Assembly: GCA_963842395.1 (NCBI GenBank)
Contig: CAWJGJ010000002.1
Location: forward strand, 1,397,720-1,461,719
Source: an uncultured Acidimicrobiales bacterium
GTDB taxonomy: Bacteria; Actinomycetota; Acidimicrobiia; Acidimicrobiales; VFJN01
DNA length: 64,000 nt
Direction of reading: 5' to 3'
Shown here: positions 4,970-55,194 of the stretch, piece by piece
How the letters are laid out: each line of letters opens with the position of its first letter
How positions within the stretch are numbered: position 1 is the stretch's first letter
The notes under the pieces: generated by a model
Databases searched by the model: none
Seen by the model: the letters and a program-made list of their open reading frames with translations, nothing else
Told to the model about the DNA's origin: nothing
Translations under genes and position numbers: made by a program

Positions 4970-7876
4970 ATGGGCGCAACCAGGCGGGTGCTCGAACACA
5001 AGGTCACGGTGCCGCCGACCGCGGGCGCCATCGCCCGGCCCGAGCTGGTGGCTCGCTCGCTCGCATGCCAGGTCGCGTTGCTCACGGCGCCCGCCGGGCA
5101 CGGCAAGACCTACCTGGCGGCCCAGATCGCCGCCGCGAGCGGCGGCCCGACCGCGTGGTTCAGCGCCGACGACCTCGACCAGGACACCCTCGGGGTGGTC
5201 GAGCACATGCTCGCGGCACTGGCGCGCGCCTGGCCCGACGCCGCCAGCCCCTCCGCGACGCTGACCGACGACGCTGCCGCGCTCCCCGTGCTGGCCGCGA
5301 CGATCGAAACTCTGGCCGGGCCGGGTTGCCTGGTGCTCGACAACGCCCACCTCGTCGGCCGGGCCCTGCTCGACGCCGTCGTCGGTGCGGTGCTCGCGGC
5401 CCTGCCCTCCCCCTGCCACCTGGTCGTGTGCACGCGCGACGCCGTGACGCCCGCGCTCCTCGAAGCCGAGGGAGCCCGCCGGGCGGTGATCGTCGGAGCC
5501 GGCGAGCTGGCCTTCACCGTCGACGAGTGCGCAACGATCCGCGGCGTCGATGCCGGCGAGGCGCGCGAGCGGCATCGCCGCACGGGCGGGTGGCCGCTGG
5601 CGGTGGCGCTGGCGAGCGGGACCTCCGGCGCGGACGGCGGCCGCCTCGACACCCTGACCGAGCTGGCGCTCGCCGACCTGCCGGGAGCCGTCAGGCCCCG
5701 CCTGACAGCGATGGCCCGTCTGCCCGATGTCCCGGCCGGCATTCTCGTCGGCTCGGGCGTCACCGCCGTCGACGAGTTCGCCAGCGCCCATCCCGCGCTG
5801 ATCGAACGGCTCGGCGACGACCGCTATGCCGTGCGCGGCTGGCTCCGCCACTCGCTCGGCACCGAGGCCGTCGACGCCTCCGTGGTCACCGAGCTCGCCA
5901 CGCAGCTGCAGCGGTGCGGCGAGGGCGAGATGGCCGCCCATCTCCTGCTGGCCTGCGACCGCACCGGCGACGCCGTGCCTCTCATCGCCGAGCTGGCCAG
6001 GGGCGCAGCACGGGAGGGACGTTGGGAGCGGGTGAGCACGCTGGTCACCCGGATACCGGGACCAACGAGGACGATCGAGCTCGAGATCCTCGCCACACGC
6101 GCGGCCGGCGTGCTCGGCGCCCCGGACGAGCCGGCCCTCGTCGACCTCGTGAACAGGACCGAGGGCGCCGAGCCGAGCCTCTCCCTGCGGGCCCGGGAAG
6201 CCCTCGCCGACCACTACCGGATGACAGGCGACCTGCGATTCCTCGAGGTGTGCGAGGCCGCCCTCGGCGACGTCCTCACTGCTCCCGAGCCCGAGGCGCG
6301 GCTCCTGGACAGGTGGCCCCACACCGACCTCTCCTCCGACGATGCCGCCCTGGCCGGGGAGATGTTGCGCTTCTACGGCCACGGGCTGATCTTCGCCGCC
6401 GACCGCGAGGCCATCGAGCGCGGCCGACGGCTCGTCGTGGCCTCGTTCGCCGTGGCCCGGAGGGTCGGCCGCAGCGTGGTGTCCCCACAAGCCTGGTTCC
6501 TCTACGTCGAGGCGCTGCTCTATCTGCGGCCCCCTGCCGAGGTCGTCCCCCGGATCGCCGCCGTGACCCGATGGCTGCAGGACCGCGGGCACGGCGACGC
6601 CGCCCTTCGCTTGGCCGAGCTGGCCGTCCTCGAGTACGTCATGGGCGACTTCCCCGCGGCGAGCCGCACCGTGGAGATCGGCCTGGAGTGGGCAGATCTC
6701 ACCGGCTACTCGATCGCACGGCCACCGCTGCATGCCGTCGCCGCCGCCGTCGACGTCGTCCGGGGCGGTCACACCCACGATCGCGCCGCCCGGTTCGACG
6801 ACGCGCTGGTCGAGATGGCGTCGGAGCCCCGCCTGGCGTTCTACGTGCCGGCGTACGCGGCCGAGTTCGGGATCCTGCTCGTGGCACAGGGTGCGGTGGA
6901 TGCGGCGCAGCGCTACCTCACGCAGGCGGAGGAGCCGGCGCCGGCCCTCGTCAGCCACCTGTGGACCCTGCGCAGCCGCCGCCTGCGCGGCCTGCTGGAT
7001 CTGTCGGGCCACCGCGCTGCCGAGGGTCGCGCCGTCCTGGAGGCGCTGCGTGAAGAAGCCGCCGCGCACGGACGGATCGCACTCGTCGAGTTGCTCGACG
7101 CCGACTTGTCCCCGGCACCGCAACCGCCAGCCACGCCGGCGACGGCGGATGCGCAGCCACTCGTGACCGTCCGGGTCCTCGGGCCCGAGCTGATCGCCAC
7201 CGTCGAGGGTGAGCCCGTCACCGGCCTGCGGGGGTACCCGGCGAAGCTGCTCGCACTGCTCGTGGCGTCGGGGGGCGTGATGACCGTGGACGCCGCGATC
7301 GAGGGGCTGTGGCCCGACGCCGATCTCGTGATCGGGCGCAACCGCCTGCACGGCATCCTCCTGCGGCTCCGGCGCACCCTCGGCCTCCCCGCCAGCGGTC
7401 CCATCACCTGCGCCGACGACCTGGTCCGGCTCAGCAGGGACGGCCCGCTCGTCGTCGACAGCTGGGCGTTCGAGCGGGCCGGCACCGCGGGCAGCCGCCT
7501 GGCGGACTGGCAGGCCGTCGCGCGCTACGGCGATGGGGTGCTCACCCACCAGTTCGCCTATGACGACGCCATCGAGGCCTACCGCCGGTCGACACGGACC
7601 GCGTTCCTACACACAGCGTCCGAGCTGCTGGCCGACCCGGCGACCGCGCCCGAGCCCGAGGCCGCCGTCGCCCTGGCCTGCGAGGTCGGGCGCCTCGCAC
7701 CCGACAACGAGTCGCTGTGCCTCCTGGCGGTCGACGTGTTGGTCCGCAACGGCCACACCGCCGAGGCGGGCGAGCTCGTCCGTCGCATCGCACATGCGCT
7801 CCACAGCCTCGGGATCGACCCGGCCGGCTTCGCCGCGGCCGCCCGCCGACTCACGGCCGATCGGCCGATGCCCTAG
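4970..7876 (+). CDS. STAND/MalT-like P-loop ATPase regulator with C-terminal SARP-type winged helix plus BTAD
   Basis: 968-aa intact ORF. N-terminal segment ARPELV...LLTAPAGHGKTYLAAQ...WFSADDLDQD resembles the MalT N-terminus, followed by a helical repeat middle. The C-terminal segment VRVLGPELIATVEGEPVTGLRGYPAKLLALLV...GLWPD is OmpR/SARP-like and is followed by a BTAD-like helical region. Confidence 0.7.
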   Translation: MGATRRVLEHKVTVPPTAGAIARPELVARSLACQVALLTAPAGHGKTYLAAQIAAASGGPTAWFSADDLDQDTLGVVEHMLAALARAWPDAASPSATLTDDAAALPVLAATIETLAGPGCLVLDNAHLVGRALLDAVVGAVLAALPSPCHLVVCTRDAVTPALLEAEGARRAVIVGAGELAFTVDECATIRGVDAGEARERHRRTGGWPLAVALASGTSGADGGRLDTLTELALADLPGAVRPRLTAMARLPDVPAGILVGSGVTAVDEFASAHPALIERLGDDRYAVRGWLRHSLGTEAVDASVVTELATQLQRCGEGEMAAHLLLACDRTGDAVPLIAELARGAAREGRWERVSTLVTRIPGPTRTIELEILATRAAGVLGAPDEPALVDLVNRTEGAEPSLSLRAREALADHYRMTGDLRFLEVCEAALGDVLTAPEPEARLLDRWPHTDLSSDDAALAGEMLRFYGHGLIFAADREAIERGRRLVVASFAVARRVGRSVVSPQAWFLYVEALLYLRPPAEVVPRIAAVTRWLQDRGHGDAALRLAELAVLEYVMGDFPAASRTVEIGLEWADLTGYSIARPPLHAVAAAVDVVRGGHTHDRAARFDDALVEMASEPRLAFYVPAYAAEFGILLVAQGAVDAAQRYLTQAEEPAPALVSHLWTLRSRRLRGLLDLSGHRAAEGRAVLEALREEAAAHGRIALVELLDADLSPAPQPPATPATADAQPLVTVRVLGPELIATVEGEPVTGLRGYPAKLLALLVASGGVMTVDAAIEGLWPDADLVIGRNRLHGILLRLRRTLGLPASGPITCADDLVRLSRDGPLVVDSWAFERAGTAGSRLADWQAVARYGDGVLTHQFAYDDAIEAYRRSTRTAFLHTASELLADPATAPEPEAAVALACEVGRLAPDNESLCLLAVDVLVRNGHTAEAGELVRRIAHALHSLGIDPAGFAAAARRLTADRPMP

Positions 7877-26094: not shown

Positions 26095-28878
<2,784 letters not shown>

Positions 28879-29033
28879 CGGCGACAGTTGAAGTGCATCG
28901 CGCCTTCACTGTCAAACACCTGCATGCACGGGCAGTCCCGCCGACCGGCCCGCAGCGCTCATCCGGGCGAGGGGCAGGGCCCGGCGACGGGCACCCTCCC
29001 CACGCGGTGCCGGCGGGCGTTCAGGGATGTGTT

Positions 29034-29075
29034 GGGGTGATCCCCGATGCCCCGACGGGGGGTCAGCCGTAGCCT
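29034..29075 (+). promoter_or_regulatory. GATCCCC-box promoter, copy 1
   Basis: GGGGTGATCCCCGATG (29034-29049), 20 nt, then TAGCCT (29070-29075, TANNNT), upstream of the first IniB-like gene. Confidence 0.55.
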
Positions 29076-29121
29076 GACAAGGTCCCCGGATCGCCGCCGG
29101 GGCGTCAACTCAGGAGGACAG

Positions 29122-29913
29122 ATGGACGGCATGTCACTTCTCGACGTGCTGCGGGGCGTCATGCTCGACCCGGCCGAACAGGCCGCGTACAACGCCAACC
29201 CCGGCGCGTACCTGGAGCACTACGGCTACGACGACGTCGACTCCGCCGACCTGTCCGAAGCCTTCGGCCTCGTGGCCGACACGCTGCCCCCCGAGGTGGC
29301 CCAGACCGCGTGGCAGGCCTCGGCCGACCACGGGGACGAGGCCTTCGGTGGGGTGACCACCGAGTTCGACACCCAGGCCGGCGTCGACGCCGAGCCCGAG
29401 CCACCGCCCGGGGCCGATGCGCCCGGGGCGGCCGACGACGCCGACCCCGCGCTGTCGTTCGGCTACGGCGAGGCCGACGATCAGGACCTCGACGGCGACG
29501 CGTCGGGCGCGGGCCTGCTCGCGGCGGACGCGTCGACCACCAACGGCAGCCACGACGGCGGCGCCTTCGGGGACGCGGCCGTCGACGACCTCGCGGATCC
29601 CGACGACGCCGGAACGTTCGGCGACCTCAGCACCGGAGACGAGAGCGGCACCGGCGACGTCAGCGGCGAGGACGGCGACGACGCCGGCGACGACGCCGGC
29701 CCGGACGGGCCCGCCGCGGACGACGACGGTGCCGGGCCCGGCGACGGCTGGGACGACCTCGGCGACGGCCAGCTCGACGGCGGGCTGGAGGGCGACGACG
29801 GCGGCCTGGGGATCGGCGAGCTCGGCGACGACTCGGCCGAGATCGACGGCCTGAACGACCTCGCCGGCCTCCCGGACGACTCGTCCGACGGCACCGACAT
29901 CGGCTCGTTCTGA
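29122..29913 (+). CDS. IniB N-terminal domain protein with Asp/Gly-rich acidic tail (paralog 1)
   Basis: (MDG)MSLLDVLRGVMLDPAEQAAYNANPGAYLEHYG resembles the IniB N-terminus (SLIDYILSLFRSEDAARSFVAAPG in M. tuberculosis, from memory). AGGAGG at 29112-29117. The alternative start at 29131 (MSLL) aligns better with the paralogs. The tail has one Arg and no Lys. Confidence 0.75.
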   Translation: MDGMSLLDVLRGVMLDPAEQAAYNANPGAYLEHYGYDDVDSADLSEAFGLVADTLPPEVAQTAWQASADHGDEAFGGVTTEFDTQAGVDAEPEPPPGADAPGAADDADPALSFGYGEADDQDLDGDASGAGLLAADASTTNGSHDGGAFGDAAVDDLADPDDAGTFGDLSTGDESGTGDVSGEDGDDAGDDAGPDGPAADDDGAGPGDGWDDLGDGQLDGGLEGDDGGLGIGELGDDSAEIDGLNDLAGLPDDSSDGTDIGSF

Positions 29914-30027
29914 CCCTGCTCTCGGAGCGCGCACGGGCCCACGTCGAGCGTCGCGAACCGTTCGGGCCGCGACGCCGTATCCCGCTCCGTGACAGCACGC
30001 AGGACAGCGCTCTCGCCGCTCTCGATC

Positions 30028-30053
30028 GTGGCCCGGGTACTCACCCGGGCCAC
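30028..30053 (+). terminator. stem-loop downstream of IniB-like gene 1
   Basis: Perfect 11-bp stem GTGGCCCGGGT/ACCCGGGCCAC with loop ACTC. There is no U tract. Confidence 0.4.
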
Positions 30054-30123
30054 CGTCGCGCCCGGCCCCGGCGCACTCCCCGGGACCCCGTCGCGATCCC
30101 CTAAGGGATCCACCGGCCGGCAG

Positions 30124-30165
30124 GGGGCGATCCCCGATGGCCAGCTGACGCCGGAGTCGTAGCGT
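30124..30165 (+). promoter_or_regulatory. GATCCCC-box promoter, copy 2
   Basis: GGGGCGATCCCCGATG (30124-30139), 20 nt, then TAGCGT (30160-30165). Extra half-sites CGATCCCC-TAA-GGGATC lie at 30094-30110. Confidence 0.55.
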
Positions 30166-30224
30166 GCTCCACACGCAAGGTCGCTCGAGAGGCGGGTGGC
30201 CCCAAAACCAGGAGCAACTAAGCG

Positions 30225-31382
30225 ATGTCACTCATCGACACCCTCTTCAACATCTTCAACGACAACGACACCCAGAACGCCTTCCAGAACAACCCTGAGG
30301 GCTTCCTGAACCAGAACGGGCTCGGCAACATCAGCAGCATCGAGGTGCAGGAAGCGATCCCGCACGTCCTGACGGCCCTCCAGGGCAACTCGGGCGGCGC
30401 CACCCAGGGCGGCGCGGCGTCCTTCGCCAGCAGCGGCAACGTCACCCTGCCCCCGCCGCCCCCCGGCGGCGGCGGCGACGACGGCGGCCTGTCGGGCGCC
30501 ATCGAGTCGATCAACCACTACACCAGCGTCCTGAACGAGACGAACCAGACGTTCGAGGACAACGACACCACCAACATCGACGACTCGGACACCCAGGTCG
30601 ACCAGTCGGTCAACCAGGACATCACCGCCTTCGGCGATGTCACCCAGGACTTCGACAACGACGTCGTGTCCGGTGACGGCAACGCCCTGGCCGGCGACAA
30701 CTCGCAGGTCAACAGCGGTGCCGGGGCCGTGCAGGCCGGCGACGACATCGAGGACTCCAACGTCGTCACCGGTGTCGTCAACGACTCGGTCCTGGCCGAC
30801 GACATCGAGGACTCGGTCGTCGGCGACAACAACGAGGCCATCATCGACTCCGAGGTCGGCGCGGCCGCCTTCGGTGACGGCGACGCCACCAACGTCACGG
30901 CCCAGAACGCCAACGTCGGCGACGGCACCCAGATCGTGGGCGGCAACGGCGACGTCAACGCCAACGTGGGCGACGGCGACTTCACCCAGATCGACGACTC
31001 CAACCTGAGCGAGTCGGTCGTGGGCGGCGGCACCGTGCAGTCCAACGACGTCAACATCGAGGCCGACGACGGCGCCGCAGTGGCGTTCGGCGAGGGCTCC
31101 GAGGCCGAGGGCTCGAACGTCGACATCGACGATGTCAGCGGCAACGTCCAGGTGGCCGGCGACGACTCGACCCAGGTCGTGGACCAGTCGACCGACAACT
31201 CGGTCAACGACAGCTTCAACGCCACCGACAGCTTCAACGCCACCGACAACTCGGTGAACGACAGCTACAACATCGAGGACAGCTTCGACACCGAGGTCGA
31301 CGCCAGCGACAACAGCGTCAACATCGATGAGAGCGACAACTCGATCGACGCCAGCGACGACGACGTCGTCGACATCGCCTGA
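30225..31382 (+). CDS. IniB N-terminal domain protein with Asp/Asn/Ser/Val-rich repeat tail (paralog 2)
   Basis: 385-aa intact ORF with AGGAGC 9 nt before the ATG. The N-terminus is MSLIDTLFNIFNDNDTQNAFQNNPEGFLNQNG, followed by a poly-Pro/Gly hinge and about 290 aa of quasi-repetitive acidic sequence. No Lys or Arg anywhere in the protein. Confidence 0.8.
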   Translation: MSLIDTLFNIFNDNDTQNAFQNNPEGFLNQNGLGNISSIEVQEAIPHVLTALQGNSGGATQGGAASFASSGNVTLPPPPPGGGGDDGGLSGAIESINHYTSVLNETNQTFEDNDTTNIDDSDTQVDQSVNQDITAFGDVTQDFDNDVVSGDGNALAGDNSQVNSGAGAVQAGDDIEDSNVVTGVVNDSVLADDIEDSVVGDNNEAIIDSEVGAAAFGDGDATNVTAQNANVGDGTQIVGGNGDVNANVGDGDFTQIDDSNLSESVVGGGTVQSNDVNIEADDGAAVAFGEGSEAEGSNVDIDDVSGNVQVAGDDSTQVVDQSTDNSVNDSFNATDSFNATDNSVNDSYNIEDSFDTEVDASDNSVNIDESDNSIDASDDDVVDIA

Positions 31383-31418
31383 GCCTCCGGCAACGGCACC
31401 AGCAATCCCAGGCATCAT

Positions 31419-31450
31419 CCAGGGCCCCGGCAGCGTTGCCGGGGCCCTGG
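31419..31450 (+). terminator. stem-loop downstream of IniB-like gene 2
   Basis: Perfect 14-bp stem CCAGGGCCCCGGCA/TGCCGGGGCCCTGG with loop GCGT. Confidence 0.5.
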
Positions 31451-31460
31451 CGCGCCCTGG

Positions 31461-31500
31461 CGGGTCGGGGTCGGCCCGGGCGGGTCGGGGTCGGCCCGGG
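31461..31500. repeat. perfect 20-nt tandem duplication
   Basis: CGGGTCGGGGTCGGCCCGGG occurs twice in tandem, directly after the terminator hairpin. Confidence 0.8.
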
Positions 31501-31558
31501 CGGCGGCGATGATCCCCGTCCCGGCGAGCCATCCCCCACGCCACCCTCCATTCACCGC

Positions 31559-31600
31559 GGGGCGATCCCCGATGCCCTCCCCGTCACCTGGGCGTACGTT
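31559..31600 (+). promoter_or_regulatory. GATCCCC-box promoter, copy 3
   Basis: GGGGCGATCCCCGATG (31559-31574), 20 nt, then TACGTT (31595-31600). An additional GATCCCC lies at 31511-31517. Confidence 0.55.
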
Positions 31601-31656
31601 GTCGCCATGGCCTCCCGGATGCGGGTGGAGGTCCCGAGCACCAGGAGTGCCCCGAA

Positions 31657-32878
31657 ATGAGCGTCATCGACTTCCTTCTCGACTACTTCCGCAGCGACGA
31701 GCAACAAGACGAGTTCGCGAACGATCCTGCGGCCTTCCTCGACGCCAACGCCCCCGACGGGCTGACCGCCGAGGCCATCCTCGCCGCCATGCCCGGCGTG
31801 TGCGCCGAGCTGCCCGCCGAGCAGGCCGACTCGCTGCGGACGGCCTACGGGCTGGACGGCTCGTCGGGCGACGGCGGCACCGGCGGCGGCGGTGGCAGTG
31901 GTGGCGGCGGTGGCGGGCGACATCGATCCCGGCTCACAACCCGCTTCCCCCGCCCCCCACCCCGGACCCGGGCGGCGACCCCCTCGAGAACCTGATCGAG
32001 CAGATCAACTACTACACGACCGTCACGAACGTCACGAACCAGACGTTCGAGGACAACGACGTCACGAACATCGACGACAGGGACACGCAGGTCGACCAGT
32101 CGGTCAACCAGGACATCACCGCCTTCGGCGATGTCACCCAGGACTTCGACAACGACGTCGTGTCCGGTGACGGCAACGCCCTGGCCGGCGACAACTCGCA
32201 GGTCAACAGCGGTGCCGGGGCCGTGCAGGCCGGTGGCGACATCGAGGACTCCAACGTCGTGACCGGCGCCGTCACCGACTCGGTCCTGGCCGACGACATC
32301 GAGGACTCGGTGGTCGGCGACGGCAACCAGGCCATCATCGACTCGTCGGTGGGCGCCGCCAGCTTCGGCGACGGCGACGCCACCAACGTCGACGCCCAGA
32401 ACGCCAACGTCGGCGACGGCACCCAGATCGTGGGCGGCAACGGCGACGTCAACGCCAACGTGGGCGACGGCGACTTCACCCAGATCGACGACTCCAACCT
32501 GAGCGAGTCGGTCGTGGGCGGCGGCACCGTGCAGTCCAACGACGTCGACATCACGGCCGACGACGGCGCCGCAGTGGGCTTCGGCGCCGGCTCCTCGGCC
32601 GAGGGCTCGAACGTCGACGTCGACGATGTCAGCGGCAACGTCCAGGTGGCCGGCGACGACTCGACCCAGGTCGTGGACCAGTCGACCGACAACTCGGTCA
32701 ACGACAGCTTCAACGCCACCGACAGCTTCAACGCCACCGACAACTCGGTGAACGAGTCAGCTACAACATCGAGGACAGCTTCGACACCGAGGTCGACGCC
32801 AGCGACAACTCGATCGACGTCGACGCCAGCGACAACTCCGTCGACGTCAGCGACGACGACGGTATCGACGTCGCCTGA
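31657..32878 (+). pseudogene. IniB N-terminal domain protein with Asp/Asn-rich repeat tail (paralog 3), two apparent frameshifts
   Basis: The N-terminus is MSVIDFLLDYFRSDEQQDEFANDPAAFLDANA. The frame breaks in the Gly-codon run at about 31915 and again at about 32757 (aacgagtcagctac versus aacgacagctac in paralog 2). The reconstructed end is ...SDDDGIDVA* with TGA at 32876-32878. Confidence 0.7.
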
Positions 32879-32994
32879 TCGCACTCATTGACGCACCGGC
32901 AACGGGGCCCCGGTTCACTGCTGGGGTCCCGTGCCGCGTGTACTGACACCCACTCGATCCGCGTTAGCGTTGCCGGGTACAAGGAGCTGCGCAC

Positions 32995-34901
32995 ATGGCG
33001 GGGAACCCCAACGCCGGCCAGAGGTCGGCGACCGTCCAACAGGCACTGTCCGTAGTCGACCTCGGGCGACAGGCGAGCACGGCGTACGACCGTCCCGACC
33101 TGGCCAGCCGGCTCGCGTTCACGCGCAAGCGCCTCGCCGACCCCGCCTTCCACGTGTTCGTCATCGGCGAGTTCAAGCAGGGCAAGTCGTCGCTGGTCAA
33201 CGCCCTGCTCAACGCACCCGTGTGCCCCGTCGACGACGACATCGCCACGTCGGTGCCCACCGCCATCCGCTACGGCGACCCGCCCGCCGCGGCCGTCCTG
33301 TTCGACCCGGGTGGCGACCTGTCCGATCCCACCCGCGAGCCGATCCGCGAGACCATCCCGGTCGACCAGGTCGCCCGCTACGTCACCGAGACGGCCGAGG
33401 TCGCCGGCGAGCGCCGGGTCAGCTCGGTCGAGGTGTCCCTGCCCCGCAAGCTGCTCAGCGACGGGCTCGTGATCGTCGACACCCCCGGCGTCGGGGGACT
33501 GGGCTCGGCCCACAGCGCCGCCACCATCGGGGCGCTGCCCCTGGCGGACGCCGTGGTGTTCGTCTCCGACGCCAGCCAGGAGTTCACCGGTCCCGAGCTG
33601 GATTTCCTGCAGACCGCCCGCCGCATGTGCCCCAACGTGGTGTGCGTGCTCACCAAGACCGACTTCTACCCGTCGTGGCGCAAGATCCGCGACCTCAACG
33701 TCGACCACCTGGCCCGCCAGGGGGTCCCGGCCGAGATCCTGTGCGTGTCGTCCTCGCTGCGGGTGCACGCCCTGCGGGCCAACGACCGCGAGCTCAACCG
33801 CGAGTCGGGCTTCCCCGAGCTGGCGGGGTACCTCCAGAACAAGATCGCCGGCAACGCCGAGAAGCTGAGCGTGCGGTCGGCCGTGAACGACGTCGTCGCC
33901 GTCGCCTCTCTGCTCGAGAGCCAGTTCCGCAGCGAGCGCGATGCCCTCGACAACCCCGAGGAAGCCCAGCGGGTGGTCGACAACCTCACCGAGCTCAAGG
34001 CCAAGGCCGAGCGGCTGAAGAGCGGCGTGTCGAAGTGGCAGCAGACGCTCACCGACGGCGTGGTCGACCTGCAGGCCGACGTCGACCACGACCTGCGGGC
34101 CCGGGTCCGGCAGGTGTCCCGCATGTCCGACGAAGCGATCGAGGCCAGCGACCCGGCGGAGACCTGGGAGGAGTTCGAGCCGTGGCTCACCCGGCGGGTC
34201 ACCGAGGAGGTCGTCCACAACTACACCTTCCTCCACGCCGCGCGCCGACGGCCTGATCGAGCGCGTGAGCGAGCACTTCGGCGAGGACGGCGCGGACATC
34301 GTCATCGACCTCGACGTCGCCAACCCCAGGGAGGTGCTGGGGACGGTCGACGCCAACACCGACGTCGAGCTCAGGAAGATGGGCGTCGGTGGGCAGAGCC
34401 TGACCATGCTGAAGGGCAGCTACGGCGGCATCATCATGTTCAGCGTGCTGGGGAGCATGGCCGGCCTGGCGGTCGGCGCGGTCGGCGGTCCCGCCGCGAT
34501 GATGGTCGGCCTCCTCATGGGCCGCTCGGCGCTGAAGGGCGAGAAGCAGCGCCAGCTCGCGAATCGCCGCGCCCAGGCCCGGCAGGCCGTACGTAAGTAC
34601 ACCGACGAGGTGAGCTTCGTCGTGGGCAAGGACTCCCGCGACACGCTGCGCCGCACCCAACGCCGCATGCGCGACTTCTTCGCGGCCCGAGCCGAGGAGC
34701 TGCACCGGTCGACCACGAGCGCGCTCGCCGCCGCCCAGCAGGCGGTGAAGTCCGACGCCTCCAGCCGCCAGAAGCGGCTGCGCGACGTCGACGCCGAGCT
34801 GAAGCGCATCGCGGTGCTGCGCGACCGGGCCTACGCGCTCGGCGCCCGAGCTCAAGGCCGGCGACAAGGCGGCCGGCGCCGCCGGGGGTGGCTCGTCGTG
34901 A
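32995..34901 (+). pseudogene. IniA-like bacterial dynamin-like GTPase, two apparent frameshifts
   Basis: AAGGAG SD. G1 motif VIGEFKQGKSSLVNAL and G3 motif VDTPGVGG are present. A hydrophobic paddle GGIIMFSVLGSMAGLAVGAVGGPAAMMVGLLMG follows. Breaks are at about 34245 and 34846. The reconstructed tail is ...APELKAGDKAAGAAGGGSS*, about 634 aa (M. tuberculosis IniA is about 640 aa, from memory). Confidence 0.75.
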
Positions 34902-36382
34902 ACGCTCGCACCAGCTCGACGCTGCTGGCCAGCGTGCGGCACCTGCTGGAGCAGGGCACGCAGTCTTACGCGCACGTGCCCGAGGCCCGGCAGCGCCTCC
35001 AGGCAGTGCTCGACCGGCTCGACGAGCCGCTGCGGGTCGCCATCGCCGGCAAGGTCAAGGCCGGCAAGTCCACGCTGCTCAACGCCCTGGTGGGCGAGGA
35101 GCTGGCACCCACCGACGCCGGCGAGTGCACCCGCATCGTCACCTGGTACCGCGACGGCATCACCTACCGGGCCACGCTCGAGCCCAAGCAGGGCGAGGCC
35201 CGCCAGGTGCCCTTCGCCCGCGACGGCGGGGCCATCAGCATCGATCTGGGCGGCACCGACCCCGAGGACGTGAACCGCCTGGTCATCGAGTGGCCGTCGT
35301 CGTCGCTGCGGCAGATGACGCTCATCGACACCCCGGGCATCGCCTCGCTGTCGACCGACGTGTCGGCCCGCACCATCGCCTTCCTCACCCCGGGCGAGGA
35401 CCAGGTGACCCCGGCCGACGCGGTGCTGTACCTGATGCGGCACCTGCACGCGTCCGACATCAACTTCCTCGAGGCGTTCCACGACGAGGAGTTCTCGCAG
35501 GCCACGCCGGTCAACGCCGTGGCCGTGCTGTCCCGGGCCGACGAGGTGGGCGTGGGGCGCATCGACTCGATGGCGTCGGCCCAGCGCATCGCCGCCCGCT
35601 ACCGCCACGACCCCAAGGTGCGGCGCCTGGCCCAGACCGTGGTCCCGGTCGCCGGCCTGCTGGCCCAGTCGGGGGCCACGCTGCGCGAGGCCGAGTACAA
35701 GGGCCTCGACGCCATCGCCAACGCACCCCGCGACGACGCCGAGGCGTTGTTCCTGTCGGCCGACCGGTTCGTGCAGGCCGAGACGCCCATCCCTCTCACC
35801 TCGATGGAGCGCGAGCACCTGCTCGACCGCTTCGGCCTGTTCGGCGTGCGGCTGGCCGTGGCGCTCATCCGCCAGGGCGCCGCCTCGACGGCCACCGCCC
35901 TGTCGACCGAGCTGGTGCGGCGCAGCGGCCTGGTCGAGCTGCGCGACGTGCTGCTCAGCCAGTTCGCGCAGCGGCGCGACGTGCTCAAGGCCCGGTCGGC
36001 CCTGCTGGCCCTCGAGTCGGTGTTGCACGAGTTCCCGGTGGCCGACGGCGAGGTCCTGGCCTCCGAGCTCGAGCGCATCACCTCGGCGGCCCACGAGTTC
36101 GCGGAGATCCGCCTGCTGAACGCCCTGCGGGCCAGCGGCATCAAGATCAAGCCGGCCGAGGCCGCCGAGATGGAGCGGGTGCTGGGGGCCGAGGGCAGCA
36201 GCATCCACACCCGCCTCGGCCTCAGCCCCGAAGCCGACGTGTCCGAGGTGCGGCGGGCATTGGGCAACGCCATCGGGCGGTGGCAGCGTCGGGCCGAGAG
36301 CCCTATGTCGTCGCGCGAGGTCGCGGACGCGGCCCGCGTGGTCATCCGATCCTGCGAAGGTCTGCTGGTCTCGCTGGGCTGA
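34898..36382 (+). CDS. IniC-like bacterial dynamin-like GTPase
   Basis: The GTG start overlaps the upstream stop (GTGA at 34898-34901). G1 motif IAGKVKAGKSTLLNALVG and G3 motif IDTPGIASL are present. 494 aa and intact (M. tuberculosis IniC is about 493 aa, from memory). Confidence 0.8.
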   Translation: MNARTSSTLLASVRHLLEQGTQSYAHVPEARQRLQAVLDRLDEPLRVAIAGKVKAGKSTLLNALVGEELAPTDAGECTRIVTWYRDGITYRATLEPKQGEARQVPFARDGGAISIDLGGTDPEDVNRLVIEWPSSSLRQMTLIDTPGIASLSTDVSARTIAFLTPGEDQVTPADAVLYLMRHLHASDINFLEAFHDEEFSQATPVNAVAVLSRADEVGVGRIDSMASAQRIAARYRHDPKVRRLAQTVVPVAGLLAQSGATLREAEYKGLDAIANAPRDDAEALFLSADRFVQAETPIPLTSMEREHLLDRFGLFGVRLAVALIRQGAASTATALSTELVRRSGLVELRDVLLSQFAQRRDVLKARSALLALESVLHEFPVADGEVLASELERITSAAHEFAEIRLLNALRASGIKIKPAEAAEMERVLGAEGSSIHTRLGLSPEADVSEVRRALGNAIGRWQRRAESPMSSREVADAARVVIRSCEGLLVSLG

Positions 36383-36409: not shown

Positions 36410-38102
36410 GTGGAGATATCTGGGGGACACATCGACATGCCGAGCATGCGTGATGCCGACCGGGACGAGTCGTTGGCCGCCCTCACCGAACGCGACGAGC
36501 CGGCGCCGGGTTCGGCCGACTTCTGGTGGTCGGCGTCGCCGGGGGGCGCCATAGCTCCCCCGCCGCGATCCCCCGCCCCGGCCCCGGGCTCGCCCCTCCC
36601 CGGGACGCCCGTGCCCGACGCCGGCGACCCGGTCCCCGACGCACCCGTGACCGGCGACCCGGTGCCCGGCGCACCGGCCACCGCCACATCGGGCGCCCGC
36701 GCGCCGGACACCGACGAACCTGTCCCCGGCGACCCGGCCTCCTGGGGGCCCGGCGCCGACGATGCCGTCCCGCCGGCGTGGCGGGGGCCGGGGTACGTCC
36801 CGCCCCCGTCACCCGCGTACTCGCCCCCGGTGGTCCCGCCCGTGGCGCCGGTGCGCCCGCCCAGCCCCTACCGCGCGCCCGGTGCCGGAGCCCGAGCACG
36901 AGCCGCTGTCACAGGCCCAGCGGTCACGGCGAGCGGGCGGCCGCCTCCTCGTGGCCGGGGTGTCGCTCGTGGCCATCGCCGCGGGCGTCGTCGTGATCCA
37001 GGGGAGCGGCGGCGGCACCGACGACCCCGATCGCTACGTGTTCGGTCAGGTGGCCGCCACCTCGCCGGGGGTGACCATCCGTGCCGGCGCCGGCGAGGGC
37101 GACGAGCGCCCGCTGGCTCCCGGCGACGACGTCGAGGCCGGATCGGTGCTCGAGACCACCGCCGGCGCCTCGGCGTCCGTGGACCTCGCGCAGGGCGGGG
37201 CGCTACGGGTCGAGGGCGGGGCCCGTCTGGTGTTCGTCGACCTGGCCGCCGACCCCCAGACCGGCGCCGCCGCGGCGCGGGGCAAGCCGGCCATCCAGGT
37301 CGAGGGCGGGCGGGTGTGGCTCAACCCGCAGGGCCGGGAGCCATTCGAGGTGCAGGTGGTGGGGGGAACGGTCGGCACCACCGGCCACCCGGTGGCGATC
37401 GACTGCGACCCCGTGTGCGCGGTCGAGGCCCCCGCCGGCGGCGTGACCGTCACCACCCGGGCGGACGGCCGGTCGACCCCCGCCCCGGGCGAGCTCGTGA
37501 CCATCACCTCCGGAAACAGCTTCGAGGTCGAGCTCGCGGGCGAGCCGTCGGCCTGGGCCACCGAGAACCTGGCCGCCGACGGCGAGGCGGGCATCCCCGA
37601 GGACCCCGACGCCGGCGAGCCCGGCATCAGGGAGTCGGCGCTGTTCGGCGGCAGCTACTCCCTCGACCTCGAGGTGGTCGGGAGCCCCACCGGCGACGCC
37701 ATCCCCGAGCCGCTGCGCTACCCCCAGGGCAGCACCTACAACGTCACGGTGCTGGCCGACGGCACCACCTGTGACGCCCTGCCGTGCGCCGTGCCGGTCA
37801 GCGGCCTCGACGGCGGTGCGGGCTCGGCCGAGCTGGCCGACGCCACCGTCGCCCTCACGCTCGGCCAGACCATCGACTGTTTCGACGAGACCGACACGGC
37901 GGTGGTGGTGCCCGGCATCGGCACCACCACAGTCGACGTCACGCTCACGGTCGACGATGTCGCTTACGAGGGCGGCCGCTGGGTGGTCACGTCGCTCTCC
38001 GGCACGGGCGAGGTGTCGGCGCAGCTCACCAAGGTGTGCAACCCCACCGACGTCCTGGGCACCAGCACGTCGGCCGTGGAGGCGACGGGCGCGGCCAACT
38101 GA
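36410..38102 (+). pseudogene. Pro-rich cytoplasmic segment + single TM + FecR-like extracytoplasmic domain protein, one apparent frameshift
   Basis: High-GC3 Pro-rich coding runs in the first frame to about 36880. It then continues in the next frame with ...RRAGGRLLVAGVSLVAIAAGVVVI (TM) and a FecR-like segment, VTIRAGAGEGDERPLAPGDDVEAGSVLETTAGASASVDLAQGGALRVEGGARLVF. The start is uncertain (36410 GTG, 36437 ATG or 36446 ATG). Confidence 0.6.
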
Positions 38103-49842: not shown

Positions 49843-50610
49843 TCAGGCGGGAACGGCGACCTCGCCCTGGCCGACGACCAGGGTGGGCGCCGGCGAGCCC
49901 CCGGCGGGCTCGTTGCTGATCGCGACCTGGGTCGTGCCCTCCGGCAGGGAGACCGCGACCTCGCGGTCACCGCCGGTGCCCAGGAGACCCAGCGACACGG
50001 GCTCGTCGCCGTCGGTCGACCAGAGCTGGTAGGTGCGGTCGGCGGGCAGGGCGGCCGCGTCGGTGAACTCGACCTGGGTGCCGTCCTCGCCCTGGGTCAC
50101 CACCGCGATCTCGCTGCCGGCGTCGGACTCGATGGTCCCGATCGCCACCTCGGGCGCCGGGTCGTCGCCCCCGCCCATCTCGCCCACGACGGCGACGCCG
50201 AGGCCGGCCACGACCACCACCGCGGCCGCGGCGGCCAGCACCCGGGCGAAGCGCCGGGGCGGGCGGGCCTGCCGACCGTCGCGGCGGTGCCGGGCCGACT
50301 CGAGGTCGGACAGGGGCGCCGCGCCGGCGTGCGGGGACGGCTCGTGATCGGGGGACGGCGCCGGCGTACGCGGCGCGGCCTCGGGCCGCGTCTCCTGCAC
50401 GATCCGGTCCCACACGGCCGCCGGCGGGCGCTCGTCGACGATCATCCGGGACAGGACCTCCTCGTGAGTGGCCAGCTCGCGGCGGCACGAGAGGCAGGTC
50501 GCCAGGTGCGACTCGATCGCCCGGCGCTCACTGCCGTCGACGGCGTCGAGGGCGTAGGCCGCCAGGGCGTCGCGGGGGTGGTCGCCGCCGGTGGGGTTCA
50601 CATAGCTCAT
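49843..50610 (-). CDS. rskA: anti-sigma-K factor RskA-like (zinc-binding N-domain, TM, RskA C-domain)
   Basis: The ATG overlaps the sigma-gene stop (ATGA at 50607-50610). It has an HLATCLSCRREL zinc motif, a central TM (VLAAAAAVVVVAGLGVAVV) and a C-terminal YQLWSTDG...SLGLL motif. Confidence 0.7.
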   Translation of the reverse strand: MSYVNPTGGDHPRDALAAYALDAVDGSERRAIESHLATCLSCRRELATHEEVLSRMIVDERPPAAVWDRIVQETRPEAAPRTPAPSPDHEPSPHAGAAPLSDLESARHRRDGRQARPPRRFARVLAAAAAVVVVAGLGVAVVGEMGGGDDPAPEVAIGTIESDAGSEIAVVTQGEDGTQVEFTDAAALPADRTYQLWSTDGDEPVSLGLLGTGGDREVAVSLPEGTTQVAISNEPAGGSPAPTLVVGQGEVAVPA

Positions 50611-51254
50611 GGCGTCAGCCCCTGTGCTTCGAGGGCGCGTCGCAGCCCGGCCAGACCCCGGCGTATGCGCGACTTGATCGTGCCCTCCGGGGCGCCGAGC
50701 AGCGCGGCGGTCTCGCGGTAGCTGTGGCCGCCGAAGTAGGCGAGGACGATCGCGTCGCGTTCGTCGGAGGCGAGGGTGTTGACGGCGCGGCGGACGTCGT
50801 CGGACAGCTGCGCGAGGTGCGCGGCGGCCTCGACGTCGGGCGACGGCGGGGGCGCGTAGTGGGCCTCGCGCTCCTGCCGGCGCTGGCGGGCCGTCTCGGA
50901 CCGCACCAGGTCGACGGCACGGGCATGCGCCTGCGCCACGAGCCAGGGCCGCAGCGCGCCGCGCGAGGGGTCGAACCGCTGGGGACGGCGCCACAGGTCG
51001 ACGAACACGGTCTGGGTGACGTCCTCGGCCATGGCGCGGTCGTTGCAGACGCGGCGGGCCACGCCCCAGACCGCACCCCCGTAGCGGCGGTACAGCTCGG
51101 CCAGCGCGTCGTGGTCGCCCGCCACGAGAGCGGCGACGAGCTCCTCATCCACCGGACCGGCCTGCCCGTCGGGCAGCCGCGCCACATCGACGCGTCGCGT
51201 GGGCAGCGCCGCGACCCCGACGTCGTCGGGGCTCTCGGCCGTGGTCACGAGCAT
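50607..51254 (-). CDS. sigK: ECF sigma factor (SigK-like)
   Basis: Region 2 is AELYRRYGGAVWGVARRV...AEDVTQTVFVDLWRRPQRFDP and region 4 is SYRETAALLGAPEGTIKSRIRRGL. The start is uncertain (51254 ATG preferred, ORF-track maximum 51341). Confidence 0.7.
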   Translation of the reverse strand: MLVTTAESPDDVGVAALPTRRVDVARLPDGQAGPVDEELVAALVAGDHDALAELYRRYGGAVWGVARRVCNDRAMAEDVTQTVFVDLWRRPQRFDPSRGALRPWLVAQAHARAVDLVRSETARQRRQEREAHYAPPPSPDVEAAAHLAQLSDDVRRAVNTLASDERDAIVLAYFGGHSYRETAALLGAPEGTIKSRIRRGLAGLRRALEAQGLTP

Positions 51255-51392
51255 GACCCTGGCCACATGCTGCTTGGGGACTGCCGTCGGACGCGGAACA
51301 TCTCGACGGGCATTCGGCGCCACCTGCGAACCGGATGACAAAAGCGGAACGCATGGTGGGACAGCCCACCGATCCTGCCACCATGGTCGACC

Positions 51393-54300: not shown

Positions 54301-55194
54301 TCAGGCGAGCGGGCCGGTGATCCGGAGCGCCGCGAGCTTGTCGGGGTTGACGACGGTGTAGACCTCGCGCACCTTGCCGCCCTCGACGGCGGTCGCCATG
54401 GCCAGGACCGGGCGGTCGTCGGCCAGGACCAGCAGGCCGGGCAGGCCGTTGAGCTCGACGCGCCGGAACGTGACGGCCTCGCGGAACCCCCGCTTGGTCA
54501 GGTTGATCATCAGCCGGCTCACGCGATCCGAGCCGACGACCGGCCGGCGCGCGGCGTGGGTCGTGGGACCGCCGTCGCTCACGAGCACGACATCGGGGGC
54601 GAGCAGCGAGATGACCCGGTCGGTCTGGCCGCCGGCCAGGGCGACGACCAGCTCCTCGGCCACCCGGTCGGCATCGGGCGGCGACCGGTGCCGCGTCGCG
54701 CCCGCCCGCACCCGGCGGCGGGCCCGGGTGGCGATCTGGCGGCACACGTCCGGCGTCTTGTCGACGATGCCGGCGATCTCGGGGAAGGGCACGGCGAACA
54801 CCTCGGCGAGCACGAACACGGCCCGCTCGACCGGCGTGAGCGCCTCGAGCACCCGCAGGAAGCCGAACGTGAGGGACTCCGCGAGCTCGGTCATCTCCGC
54901 CGGGTCCTCGGCGGCGTCGGTGACGACCGGCTCCGGCAGCCACGGGCCCACGTAGGTCTCGCGCCGGCGCTGCGCCGAGCGGAGGTGATCGAGCGCCAGG
55001 CGGGACACCACGGTCGTCAGCCACGCCGCCGGTCGCTCGATCGTCCCGGGATCGACCCGGCGGGCGCGTTCCCAGGCATCCTGCACGACGTCCTCGGCGT
55101 CGACGCGGGAGCCGGTGATCCGGTAGGCCAGGCCCACCAGCCGCGGCCGCTCGGCGGCGAGGGCGTCGACGACGGCGCCCGACCCGTCACCCAT
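54301..55194 (-). CDS. ECF sigma factor with C-terminal SnoaL-like extension (SigJ/ECF41 type)
   Basis: Region 2 is LVGLAYRITGSRVDAEDVVQDAWER and region 4 is PFPEIAGIVDKTPDVCRQIATRARRRV. An extension of about 110 aa ends ...VVNPDKL. ATG 55194 overlaps the upstream gene by 8 nt. Confidence 0.8.
   Translation of the reverse strand: MGDGSGAVVDALAAERPRLVGLAYRITGSRVDAEDVVQDAWERARRVDPGTIERPAAWLTTVVSRLALDHLRSAQRRRETYVGPWLPEPVVTDAAEDPAEMTELAESLTFGFLRVLEALTPVERAVFVLAEVFAVPFPEIAGIVDKTPDVCRQIATRARRRVRAGATRHRSPPDADRVAEELVVALAGGQTDRVISLLAPDVVLVSDGGPTTHAARRPVVGSDRVSRLMINLTKRGFREAVTFRRVELNGLPGLLVLADDRPVLAMATAVEGGKVREVYTVVNPDKLAALRITGPLA

Follow-up and report, generated by a model that had tools for sequence, protein, structure and literature searches.

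The window, a 64-kb stretch of DNA, carries on its plus strand a gene cluster with the layout of an Ini locus, in which three genes encoding an IniB_NTERM domain are followed by two genes encoding a Dynamin_N domain. This gene order is syntenic in seven loci. The features of the cluster are listed below by their positions in the window.

29021-29027, plus strand: TCAGGGA, extra G-tract half-site upstream of box 1 (ATCGGGGG in relatives)
29034-29049, plus strand: box 1, GGGGTGATCCCCGATG, exact copy, kept in 7/7 syntenic loci and overlapping the gene 1 promoter at -35; predicted LuxR-type/IniR-family operator
29070-29075, plus strand: -10 hexamer of gene 1, TAGCCT, separated from box 1 by 20 nt
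29122-29913, plus strand: IniB_NTERM gene 1, 263 aa, with an acidic C-terminus (NCBIfam NF038175, E 4.4e-7, 29.7 bits)
30028-30053, plus strand: G+C-rich hairpin past gene 1, GTGGCCCGGG-TACTCA-CCCGGGCCAC, read from the sequence
30096-30111, plus strand: distal element upstream of box 2, GATCCCCTAAGGGATC, kept as CCCCTAnGGGA in seven loci
30124-30139, plus strand: box 2, GGGGCGATCCCCGATG, exact copy, kept in syntenic loci
30160-30165, plus strand: -10 hexamer of gene 2, TAGCGT, separated from box 2 by 20 nt
30225-31382, plus strand: IniB_NTERM gene 2, 385 aa, with D/N-rich repeats (NF038175, E 3.5e-11, 42.9 bits)
31419-31450, plus strand: hairpin past gene 2, CCAGGGCCCCGGCAGCGTTGCCGGGGCCCTGG, near-invariant in four loci
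31559-31574, plus strand: box 3, GGGGCGATCCCCGATG, exact copy, kept in syntenic loci
31595-31600, plus strand: -10 hexamer of gene 3, TACGTT, separated from box 3 by 20 nt
31657-32878, plus strand: IniB_NTERM gene 3, interrupted by frameshifts in the window (NF038175, E 9.3e-8, 31.9 bits)
32965-32970, plus strand: -10-like hexamer TAGCGT before the IniA-like dynamin gene, conserved in seven loci
32995-36382, plus strand: IniA-like (frameshift at about 34240) and IniC-like (34898-36382) dynamin-family GTPase genes (Pfam Dynamin_N, tblastn)

Only gene 2 scores above the curated cut-off of the IniB_NTERM family, since this cut-off is set at 40 bits. Gene 1 has a tblastn match to its homologue in one of the syntenic loci (L003), gene 2 has 270 homologues, the named ones of which come from Acidimicrobiales, and the tblastn pieces of gene 3 are split between frames 1 and 3. 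The minus-strand gene upstream of box 1 was considered as iniR according to the mycobacterial layout and rejected, as it is topA.

The box GGGG[T/C]GATCCCCGATG occurs exactly three times across the 64 kb. The copies at 29034, 30124 and 31559 are exact and all lie on the plus strand, and the TANNNT hexamer found 20 nt past each box is likewise exactly where the original prediction had placed it. The distance from the end of the hexamer to the ATG is 46, 59 and 56 nt for genes 1, 2 and 3 (starts at 29122, 30225 and 31657), so that the earlier estimate of 50-60 nt was roughly right. The remaining matches to the box in the window have three mismatches each, which corresponds to the chance level. 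A relaxed scan of the 64 kb (core TCCCCGAT with at most one mismatch, at least three G in the upstream tetrad, N21 and TANNNT) returned the three sites only, against about 0.01 expected from 200 Markov simulations.

The conservation of the box was studied in seven independent syntenic Acidimicrobiales loci (L001-L007), picked by protein similarity and containing 21 promoters in total. The pattern GGGG-N3-TCCCCGAT-N21-TANNNT is kept at 21/21 of these promoters, and the flanks have diverged. Both the box and its spacing, which had been proposed for checking in orthologous loci, are retained ahead of all three genes in 7/7 loci. No further box sites were found in a scan of the 64 kb plus 6 x 21 kb. 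A small regulon may plausibly exist in this genome, of which 64 kb were covered. The description of the box as a near-palindrome holds for GGGG-N4-CCCC, though conservation is lopsided between the halves: all 21 sites share an unaltered promoter-proximal half TCCCCGAT(G), and the left half conserves GGGG alone. In the window lineage the inner GGGG-N4-CCCC is present and the left outer arm (ATC) is missing; many sites in other lineages have both arms, ATnGGGG-N4-CCCCGAT. Because the left half-site is reduced to GGGG, the dimer symmetry in the window lineage is weak, which counts against an IniR-family operator.

The three genes are paralogous, and genes 2 and 3 are about 64% identical over their shared C-terminal part (each compared with L003 homologues). 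These features would suit an origin of the three boxes as leftovers of a tandem promoter-gene duplication with no dedicated factor. Such an origin is very unlikely, being already contradicted by the conservation pattern: the flanks of the boxes are fully diverged, whereas the box, the spacing and the -10 element are invariant in seven lineages, and the same motif precedes unrelated genes in distant taxa, including Mycobacterium.

The palindrome could also act as a hairpin (GGGG-loop-CCCC) in RNA or DNA, e.g., a terminator or processing site of the upstream transcript, and the folding energy of the box (-13 kcal/mol, z = -2.8 versus shuffles) is in line with this. However, better separate hairpins lie upstream, past genes 1 and 2, of which the former is terminator-like without a T tract and is conserved in L003. 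In addition, the invariant part of the box runs beyond the stem (CGAT), the spacing to the -10 element is fixed, and where promoters in other lineages are leaderless, the box is located upstream of the transcript. There is no covariation support for the hairpin, since the stem never varies. Hence, a function of the box as a hairpin is highly improbable. A structured 5'UTR leader was rejected as well, as the three 5'UTRs fold no better than shuffles (z from -0.5 to -1.2), and a search of Rfam families gave nothing meaningful in 28700-33100.

Relative to the transcription start, as deduced from leaderless homologous promoters, the box spans approximately -48 to -33, its palindrome is centred at about -42.5 and the strong half-site TCCCCGAT covers roughly -41 to -34. 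The promoter scan of 28700-33100 revealed no sigma-70-type -35/-10 pair. The arrangement TCCCCGAT-N21-TANNNT is present at nearly all IniB_NTERM genes examined, and CCCCGAT-N21-TANNNT also occurs ahead of IniB-like genes of Pseudonocardia, Brooklawnia and other Actinomycetota. The actinobacterial pattern matches number 56 among the matches listed, most genome-scan loci having been chosen by the box itself. In 13 of these 56 listed matches, the ATG or GTG of an ORF lies 6-9 nt past the hexamer, compared with a rough chance estimate of about 2, and the hexamer is regarded as a real -10 element because these matches show the geometry of leaderless transcripts. The IniA-like gene has its TAGCGT hexamer and lacks the box, in agreement with the original prediction; TTAGCGT followed by AAGGAG is conserved there in the seven loci, and the sequence upstream is variable.

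The rigid spacing between the box and the hexamer would also be expected if the box were the -35 element of a dedicated ECF-type sigma factor with CGTA as its -10 element. The CG directly before TANNNT is indeed conserved in the syntenic sites (C in 21/21, G in 19/21), as in some ECF -10 elements; CGTA is the -10 motif of Bacillus subtilis sigma-W. Moreover, two ECF sigma genes are found in the window (50607-51341 and 54301-55251, both on the minus strand), and one pattern match (L078) is upstream of an ECF sigma gene. Nevertheless, this proposal, which was one of those made originally, is disfavoured and must be considered unlikely. The T at position 6 of the hexamer is invariant and is followed by G, giving TANNNTG in 20-21/21 syntenic sites, and the CG before TA is not conserved in the wider set (CCTA, GCTA, TTTA). 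The gap from CCGAT to CGTA is about 19 nt, with 16-18 nt being usual for ECF promoters, and the conserved block, which is palindromic in other lineages, reaches -48, farther upstream than sigma region 4 by itself would account for. Neither ECF gene of the window is preceded by the box, which leaves no autoregulatory copy within the 64 kb; only 1/121 pattern matches listed precedes an ECF gene, and the box co-localises with LAL genes rather than with sigma/anti-sigma pairs. The evidence sides with the other option put forward, a class II activator-type site, through the position at -48 to -33, the rigid spacing to a sigma-A-type TANNNT and the lack of a -35 hexamer, as well as the dyad symmetry in the wider set and the linkage to IniR-family LAL genes.

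The extra half-sites reported upstream of boxes 2 and 3 are both present. The GATCCCC half-site at 31511-31517, before box 3, is not conserved among relatives. The distal element GATCCCCTAAGGGATC of box 2 resembles the mycobacterial TCCCCTAA repeats seen in Mycobacterium tuberculosis (Mtb). The G-tract half-site of gene 1 lies about one helical turn ahead of box 1, and the gene 1 promoter features a conserved block cgGGG at -19 to -15 from the T of TCCCCGAT. The G-tract and CCCCTA elements ahead of boxes 1 and 2 hint at site arrays bound by an oligomeric regulator, in the manner of MalT promoters.

In many genomes, the box is located directly downstream of a gene for a large AAA/STAND-TPR-LuxR (LAL) regulator. 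An ORF with a GerE domain lies within the same chunk (≤8 kb) in 24/121 pattern matches listed, and 12 of these 24 have regulator and box on one strand, with the stop codon of the regulator preceding the box by -17 to 172 nt. All box-linked regulators subjected to a domain check (10/10) combine GerE with an AAA/STAND NTPase and/or TPR. The box-linked cases include Chloroflexota and WPS-2 loci, where the target genes are unrelated cupins. The box-linked regulators of other Actinomycetota, including Acidimicrobiales, are homologues of Mtb IniR (Rv0339c), with 30-43% identity over 320-850 aa and a shared recognition helix, FISxKTVEHHVA (FISAKTVEHHVARIRQRLG). Both loci picked by an IniR-like protein (L142 and L143) contain GGGGGnA-ACCCCGAT-N21-TAGGTT ahead of the genes downstream of the regulator.

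Among regulator loci selected by protein, the strict box was found in 3/80 only, and a relaxed definition with spacer controls was therefore applied. CC[CG]GAT-N21/22-NANNNT occurs 25-150 nt past the stop codon in 24/77 metagenomic regulator loci picked by protein alone; other spacers gave 0-3 matches, and the regulator coding sequence gave 1 match per 159 kb. The motif is confined to a subset of the regulator family. One regulator subgroup uses another downstream palindrome, TAAGTTAC...GTAAC. A scan of viral contigs yielded 13 single matches and no cluster, which were taken as chance.

Searches with the GerE HMM and phmmer found no LuxR-HTH or IniR-like ORF in the 64-kb window, nor in L001-L007 up to 10 kb from the Ini cluster, which counts against an IniR-family regulator as the binder. 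Nor could any recovered full-length IniR-like protein be placed on the L001-L007 contigs, which also counts against it. In the related MAG JAWKIL01, the boxes are on different contigs from its IniR-like gene. On the other hand, the iniB promoters of Mtb and M. kansasii carry ACCCCGAT exactly 29 nt ahead of TAGCGT, and the offset in the window is identical.

Taken together, the box is probably the operator of an IniR-family LAL activator and would substitute for the -35 element at the three IniB-like genes. A large STAND/AAA-TPR-LuxR regulator of the IniR/MalT-like type would bind via its C-terminal LuxR-type helix-turn-helix to the G4-N4-C4 palindrome, with the invariant half TCCCCGAT at about -41 to -34. 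The bound activator may replace -35 recognition at promoters devoid of a -35 hexamer and recruit RNA polymerase with a housekeeping-type sigma factor to the TANNNT -10 element, exactly 21 nt past TCCCCGAT. Each IniB-like gene would form its own unit of box, -10 element, 5'UTR of about 40-50 nt, gene and hairpin, so that a single regulator could switch on the three of them together, while the downstream dynamin genes would use a separate box-less -10 element. The sequences themselves demonstrate the box with its spacing and conservation, its genomic linkage to the regulator and a geometry in common with the Mtb iniB promoter, while binding by an IniR-family protein, activation rather than repression, and the inducing signal are what we infer; the stimuli to which IniR responds in mycobacteria are cell-envelope stress and trehalose.

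Sites overlapping the -35 position are also able to serve repressors, and the dyad symmetry of the box, along with the second TCCCCGAT just past the gene 1 -10 element in L003, L004 and L006, would fit an operator at which a LuxR-type or other dimer occludes the -35 region and induction proceeds via derepression. This seems improbable, since there is no -35-like hexamer for basal activity, the homologous mycobacterial IniR activates, its expression being enough for induction (PMC5760070), and MalT and PimM sites at the equivalent position activate (PMC7567727, PMC9774167).

Beyond the window, it is conceivable, with a likelihood slightly short of even, that IniR-family regulators throughout Actinomycetota share GGGG-N4-CCCCGAT, placed 21 nt ahead of the -10 element, as their operator code, and that similar LALs with the KTVEHH helix use it in Chloroflexota and Eremiobacterota. 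If so, a widespread undescribed regulon would comprise IniB-like proteins together with cydA, DedA, MMPL and small membrane or secreted proteins. The Mtb IniR operator would be ACCCCGAT, roughly -41 to -34 in the iniB promoter, together with the TCCCCTAA repeats, and in the window lineage a regulator encoded elsewhere in the genome would control three promoters to which it is not linked. In M. tuberculosis, iniBAC is a main response to cell-envelope stress and to isoniazid/ethambutol. The motif represents a testable predicted binding site in mycobacteria and uncultured Acidimicrobiia and may allow the prediction of IniR-type regulons from sequence alone. The envelope module of IniB and dynamins, with its control logic, would go back much further in time and occur much more widely than the literature on mycobacteria suggests. 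A LuxR-type activator acting in place of the -35 element is a well-known mechanism, and what this case adds is a new member along with a usable motif, not a new principle.

Among the closest known systems is the IniR-dependent iniBAC promoter of Mtb and M. marinum, which shares the IniB_NTERM targets followed by two dynamin-like GTPases. The IniR ChIP-seq peak lies directly upstream of Mtb iniBAC, and IniR expression suffices for induction (PMC5760070). The element bound under the peak could be ACCCCGAT or the distal TCCCCTAA repeats. A published IniR operator motif was not found in the literature searched. HpoR was rejected as the binder of the box, as its iniBAC motif, CAGAC-N7-TGTCTG, is unrelated (PMC13413693). 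In mycobacteria, iniR is adjacent and divergent, while the window has no regulator gene nearby. Mycobacterial promoters lack the upstream GGGG at 4-nt distance and have instead CCCCGA-TT-TCGGGG and distal TCCCCTAA direct repeats. In addition, the mycobacterial iniB, iniA and iniC constitute one operon, whereas the IniB-like genes of the window are three separately promoted genes.

Class II promoters of the LuxR/TraR type contain a palindrome of about 18-20 bp near -42.5, where the LuxR-type HTH dimer contacts RNA polymerase. These regulators differ in being quorum-sensing receptors with an autoinducer-binding domain, and their motif sequences are unrelated to the box.

MalT of E. coli, Klebsiella and Actinoplanes sp. 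SE50/110 is similarly composed of a STAND ATPase, a TPR-like sensor and a LuxR HTH, and was compared by architecture and site. The MalT box GGGGA(T/G)GAGG, with its 5' end at -34.5/-35.5 (PMC7567727), is a G-rich half-site comparable to ATCGGGGAT on the bottom strand of the window, and Actinoplanes MalT binds a palindrome overlapping the -35 region (PMC7567727). In both systems the proximal site overlaps or replaces the -35 element and ends at about -34/-35, with several sites per promoter (PMC7567727, PMC10427625). The differences concern the sites, TCATCC-N5-GGATGA or direct repeats against GGGG-N4-CCCCGAT here, and the regulon, maltose and other metabolism against IniB-like envelope proteins. 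PimM and other Streptomyces PAS-LuxR regulators, whose box CTVGGGAWWTCCCBAG sits in the -35 region (PMC9774167), share the inner geometry GGG(G)-AWWT-CCC(C), the activated promoters and the LuxR-type HTH (PMC9774167). PimM, however, is a small PAS-LuxR protein rather than a STAND/LAL regulator, the outer arms of its box are CT...AG instead of ATC...GAT, and its targets belong to polyene biosynthesis.

The 16-nt box GGGG[T/C]GATCCCCGATG occurs in the 64-kb window as three exact copies on the forward strand, at the positions given in the original prediction. As had also been claimed, a TANNNT hexamer follows every copy, with a gap of exactly 20 nt:

29034, forward strand: box copy 1; hexamer TAGCCT; start codon of IniB-like gene 1 at 29122, 46 nt beyond the hexamer
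30124, forward strand: box copy 2; hexamer TAGCGT; start codon of IniB-like gene 2 at 30225, 59 nt beyond the hexamer
31559, forward strand: box copy 3; hexamer TACGTT; start codon of IniB-like gene 3 at 31657, 56 nt beyond the hexamer

The predicted distance of about 50–60 nt between hexamer and start codon thus holds for genes 2 and 3 and is slightly too long for gene 1. No further copies of the box were found in the window, where every other match has three mismatches, as chance alone would produce. A relaxed scan, which tolerated one mismatch in the core and one non-G in the tetrad ahead of it and demanded N21 and TANNNT, returned the same three sites only, against 0.01 expected, and revealed no additional sites in about 190 kb comprising the window and the flanks of related loci. 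Each of the three genes downstream has a match to the NCBIfam IniB N-terminal domain, with the curated cut-off passed by gene 2 only; after them come an IniA-like and an IniC-like gene, both encoding dynamin-family GTPases. The neighbour on the opposite flank of the cluster is topA, not a regulator gene. Two genes are frameshifted relative to intact homologues. IniB-like gene 3 (31657–32878) is split between frames 1 and 3, and the IniA-like gene passes from frame 1 (32995–34236) into frame 2 (34244–34840); the cause is either pseudogenisation or indel errors in the assembly. The stretch from the gene 2 hairpin to box 3 contains a perfect 20-nt tandem duplication (two copies of GCGGGTCGGGGTCGGCCCGG, 31460–31499), which related loci lack.

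Through homologues of gene 2, which belong to Acidimicrobiales wherever a source is named, seven independent loci were retrieved from metagenomes and MAGs. All seven share the layout of topA (reverse strand), three IniB-like genes and two dynamin genes. The box and its spacing, whose retention at orthologous loci had been left to be checked, are kept together with the hexamer in 21 of 21 promoters. In the frequency matrix of these sites, GGGG is present in 20–21 of 21, followed by T (14), G (19) and A (17), then by TCCCCGAT (21/21) and G (18/21); the hexamer end reads C (21), G (19), TAnnnT (21) and G (20). The box has been kept while the sequence outside these blocks has diverged, a signature of selection on the box.

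Conservation extends to further elements. In gene 1 promoters, an additional (A)TCGGGGG precedes the box by about one helical turn; in those of gene 2, ATCCCCTAgGGGA stands about 30 nt upstream of it; and a G+C-rich hairpin lies 3′ of each gene. The IniA-like gene does lack the box, as predicted; at 32960–32990, GCGTTAGCGTTG (TTAGCGT) and AAGGAG are kept in 7/7 loci, with variable sequence upstream, so the dynamin genes may own a separate, regulator-independent promoter. The 5′UTRs (29083–29121, 30173–30224 and 31608–31656) contain blocks kept across seven lineages (GTCCCCGAnCGCCGCCGGGG, GGTCGCTCGAGAGGCGGGTGGCC and GGCCTCCCGAnGCGGGCGGAGG), and their predicted folds are not better than those of shuffled sequences; the gene 1 block holds a second exact TCCCCGAT in three loci (L003, L004 and L006). 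The gene 1 promoter spacer (29050–29064) contains a second small palindrome, CCCCGACGGGG(GG), represented in relatives by CCCC-N2-4-GGGG and recalling CCCCGATTTCGGGG in the same place of the M. tuberculosis iniB promoter. The topA leader (28879–28925, reverse strand) is near-invariant across loci, and its inverted repeat GACAGTTG...CAACTGTC is probably a topA regulatory element. A conserved gene of 362–803 aa without a Pfam hit follows IniC (36762–38102 in the window, and in all seven loci) and may belong to the Ini module.

The same geometry extends well beyond this lineage and beyond mycobacteria. A scan of species-representative genomes with GGGGNNNTCCCCGAT-N21-TANNNT gave at least 121 hits, at least 18 of which have IniB-like ORFs downstream, including those in Brooklawnia, Pseudonocardia acaciae and another Pseudonocardia. 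Further IniB_NTERM genes in the fetched loci, missed by the strict pattern, are preceded by (T/A/G)CCCCGAT-N21-TANNNT. Other downstream genes among the matches listed encode CydA, a PGPGW protein, DedA/VTT, MMPL and small secreted or membrane proteins. Of the 56 actinobacterial hits among these matches, 13 have an ORF starting with ATG or GTG 6–9 nt past the hexamer, an arrangement typical of leaderless transcripts. This speaks for the hexamer being a true −10 element and puts the box between about −48 and −33. Two further explanations are a relic of the duplication that produced the genes and a hairpin acting in the RNA. Both conflict with the pattern of conservation and with the box lying upstream of leaderless transcripts, and each is highly improbable. 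In Actinosynnema (L028, 1204–1245) and Saccharothrix (L084, 608–649), the full palindrome GAATCGGGGACATCCCCGATG stands 21 nt before TATAAC; the next gene is cydA, which is apparently leaderless.

In Pseudonocardia, the ORF after the Ini cluster is large and ends in a GerE (LuxR-type) domain. A domain search of all fetched loci, many of them selected by the box itself, found a GerE-domain ORF in 24 hit chunks out of at least 121. In 12 chunks the ORF shares the strand of the box, and its stop codon is −17 to 172 nt upstream. In all ten ORFs examined, GerE is accompanied by an AAA/STAND NTPase and/or a TPR/MalT-like domain, the architecture of large LuxR-type (LAL) regulators. Box-linked regulators also occur in Chloroflexota and WPS-2 loci, and a cupin-like gene follows the box in three Chloroflexota loci (two confirmed by Pfam); the link is therefore not a mere consequence of IniB genes lying near iniR. 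It also speaks against the proposal that the box is the −35 element of an ECF sigma factor. The conserved CGTA would suit such an element; however, the gap is long, the box is symmetric and reaches far upstream, T at hexamer position 6 is invariant, and the box is absent upstream of both ECF sigma genes of the window, making this reading unlikely:

50607–51341, reverse strand: ECF-type sigma factor gene
54301–55251, reverse strand: ECF-type sigma factor gene with a C-terminal extension of about 130 aa

The loci of M. tuberculosis and M. kansasii were reached via IniB itself. Rv0339c (IniR) shares 30–43% identity over 320–850 residues with actinobacterial box-linked regulators, as well as the recognition helix FISAKTVEHHVARIRQRLG. 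A search of the window, and of the syntenic loci up to 10 kb from the Ini cluster, found no IniR-like gene, and none of the IniR-like proteins from a profile search is encoded on the contigs of those loci. Two proteins from that search lie in loci with IniC, divergent IniA, the regulator and acidic genes of about 291 aa. Each acidic gene is preceded by GGGGGnA-ACCCCGAT-N21-TAGGTT, and one more boxed gene lies nearby. One of the two genomes, JAWKIL01, has boxes on two other contigs as well, so unlinked targets exist.

Among 80 metagenomic loci picked by the regulator protein, the strict box was found in three. The relaxed pattern CC[CG]GAT-N21/22-NANNNT occurs 25–150 nt past the regulator stop in 24 of 77 loci, against 0–3 hits with control spacers and one hit per 159 kb of regulator coding sequence. 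Most of these sites have a G4-5 tract 3–4 nt upstream, and several have distal CCCCTA(A/T) repeats. Seven loci (L156, L161, L167, L176, L178, L186 and L189) carry, 80–200 nt past the stop, a palindrome of the TAAGTTAC-N-GTAAC type in place of the box, together with a membrane-protein gene. The motif thus belongs to part of the regulator family only, and the palindrome suggests a putative second operator type.

The M. tuberculosis iniB promoter reads GGATCAGACCCCGATTTCGGGGTG...TAGCGT, with ACCCCGAT beginning exactly 29 nt ahead of the hexamer, an offset identical to that in the window; the M. kansasii promoter is similar. The Rv0340 promoter has CACCGAAC at the same 29-nt offset. Both promoters carry direct repeats TTTCCCCTAA/ATCCCCTAAC 75–107 nt upstream of the start:

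L140 (mycobacterial ini locus), 7140–7169 and 7840–7859: repeats TTTCCCCTAA/ATCCCCTAAC
L141 (mycobacterial ini locus), 7040–7090 and 7840–7865: repeats TTTCCCCTAA/ATCCCCTAAC

They resemble GATCCCCTAAGGGATC of the window, and similar CCCCTA(A/T) repeats lie 3′ of many metagenomic IniR-like genes; such repeats may be distal regulator sites. IniR comprises a STAND ATPase, a sensor domain resembling that of MalT, and an HTH of the LuxR type; it binds DNA upstream of iniBAC and is sufficient for induction (PMC5760070). The literature search, including that paper, yielded no description of an IniR operator motif, for which the box is a concrete candidate.

The box is real and functional-looking. A promoter scan found no −35 hexamer in the three box promoters of the window; instead, a G-rich palindrome is centred near −42.5, with an invariant proximal half (−41 to −34), a left half-site that is weak in the window's lineage, and a housekeeping-type −10 at a rigid distance. 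Activator-dependent promoters are the best reading. A repressor operator is a poor match to the absent −35 and to the activating role of IniR, and is doubtful. Of the readings first offered, a class II activator or repressor site or an ECF −35 element, the activator site is retained on the missing −35, the rigid −10 and the LAL linkage, and the ECF element is disfavoured. The promoter architecture and the IniR precedent point to an IniR-family protein as the binder; the box is probably a −35-overlapping operator of such a LuxR-HTH/LAL activator. The bound regulator would recruit RNA polymerase to all three promoters individually, presumably upon an inducing signal. The same arrangement is seen in MalT boxes (GGGGA(T/G)GAGG ending at −34.5/−35.5) and in the palindrome overlapping −35 of Actinoplanes MalT (PMC7567727), as well as in PimM boxes, CTVGGGAWWTCCCBAG, located in the −35 region (PMC9774167).
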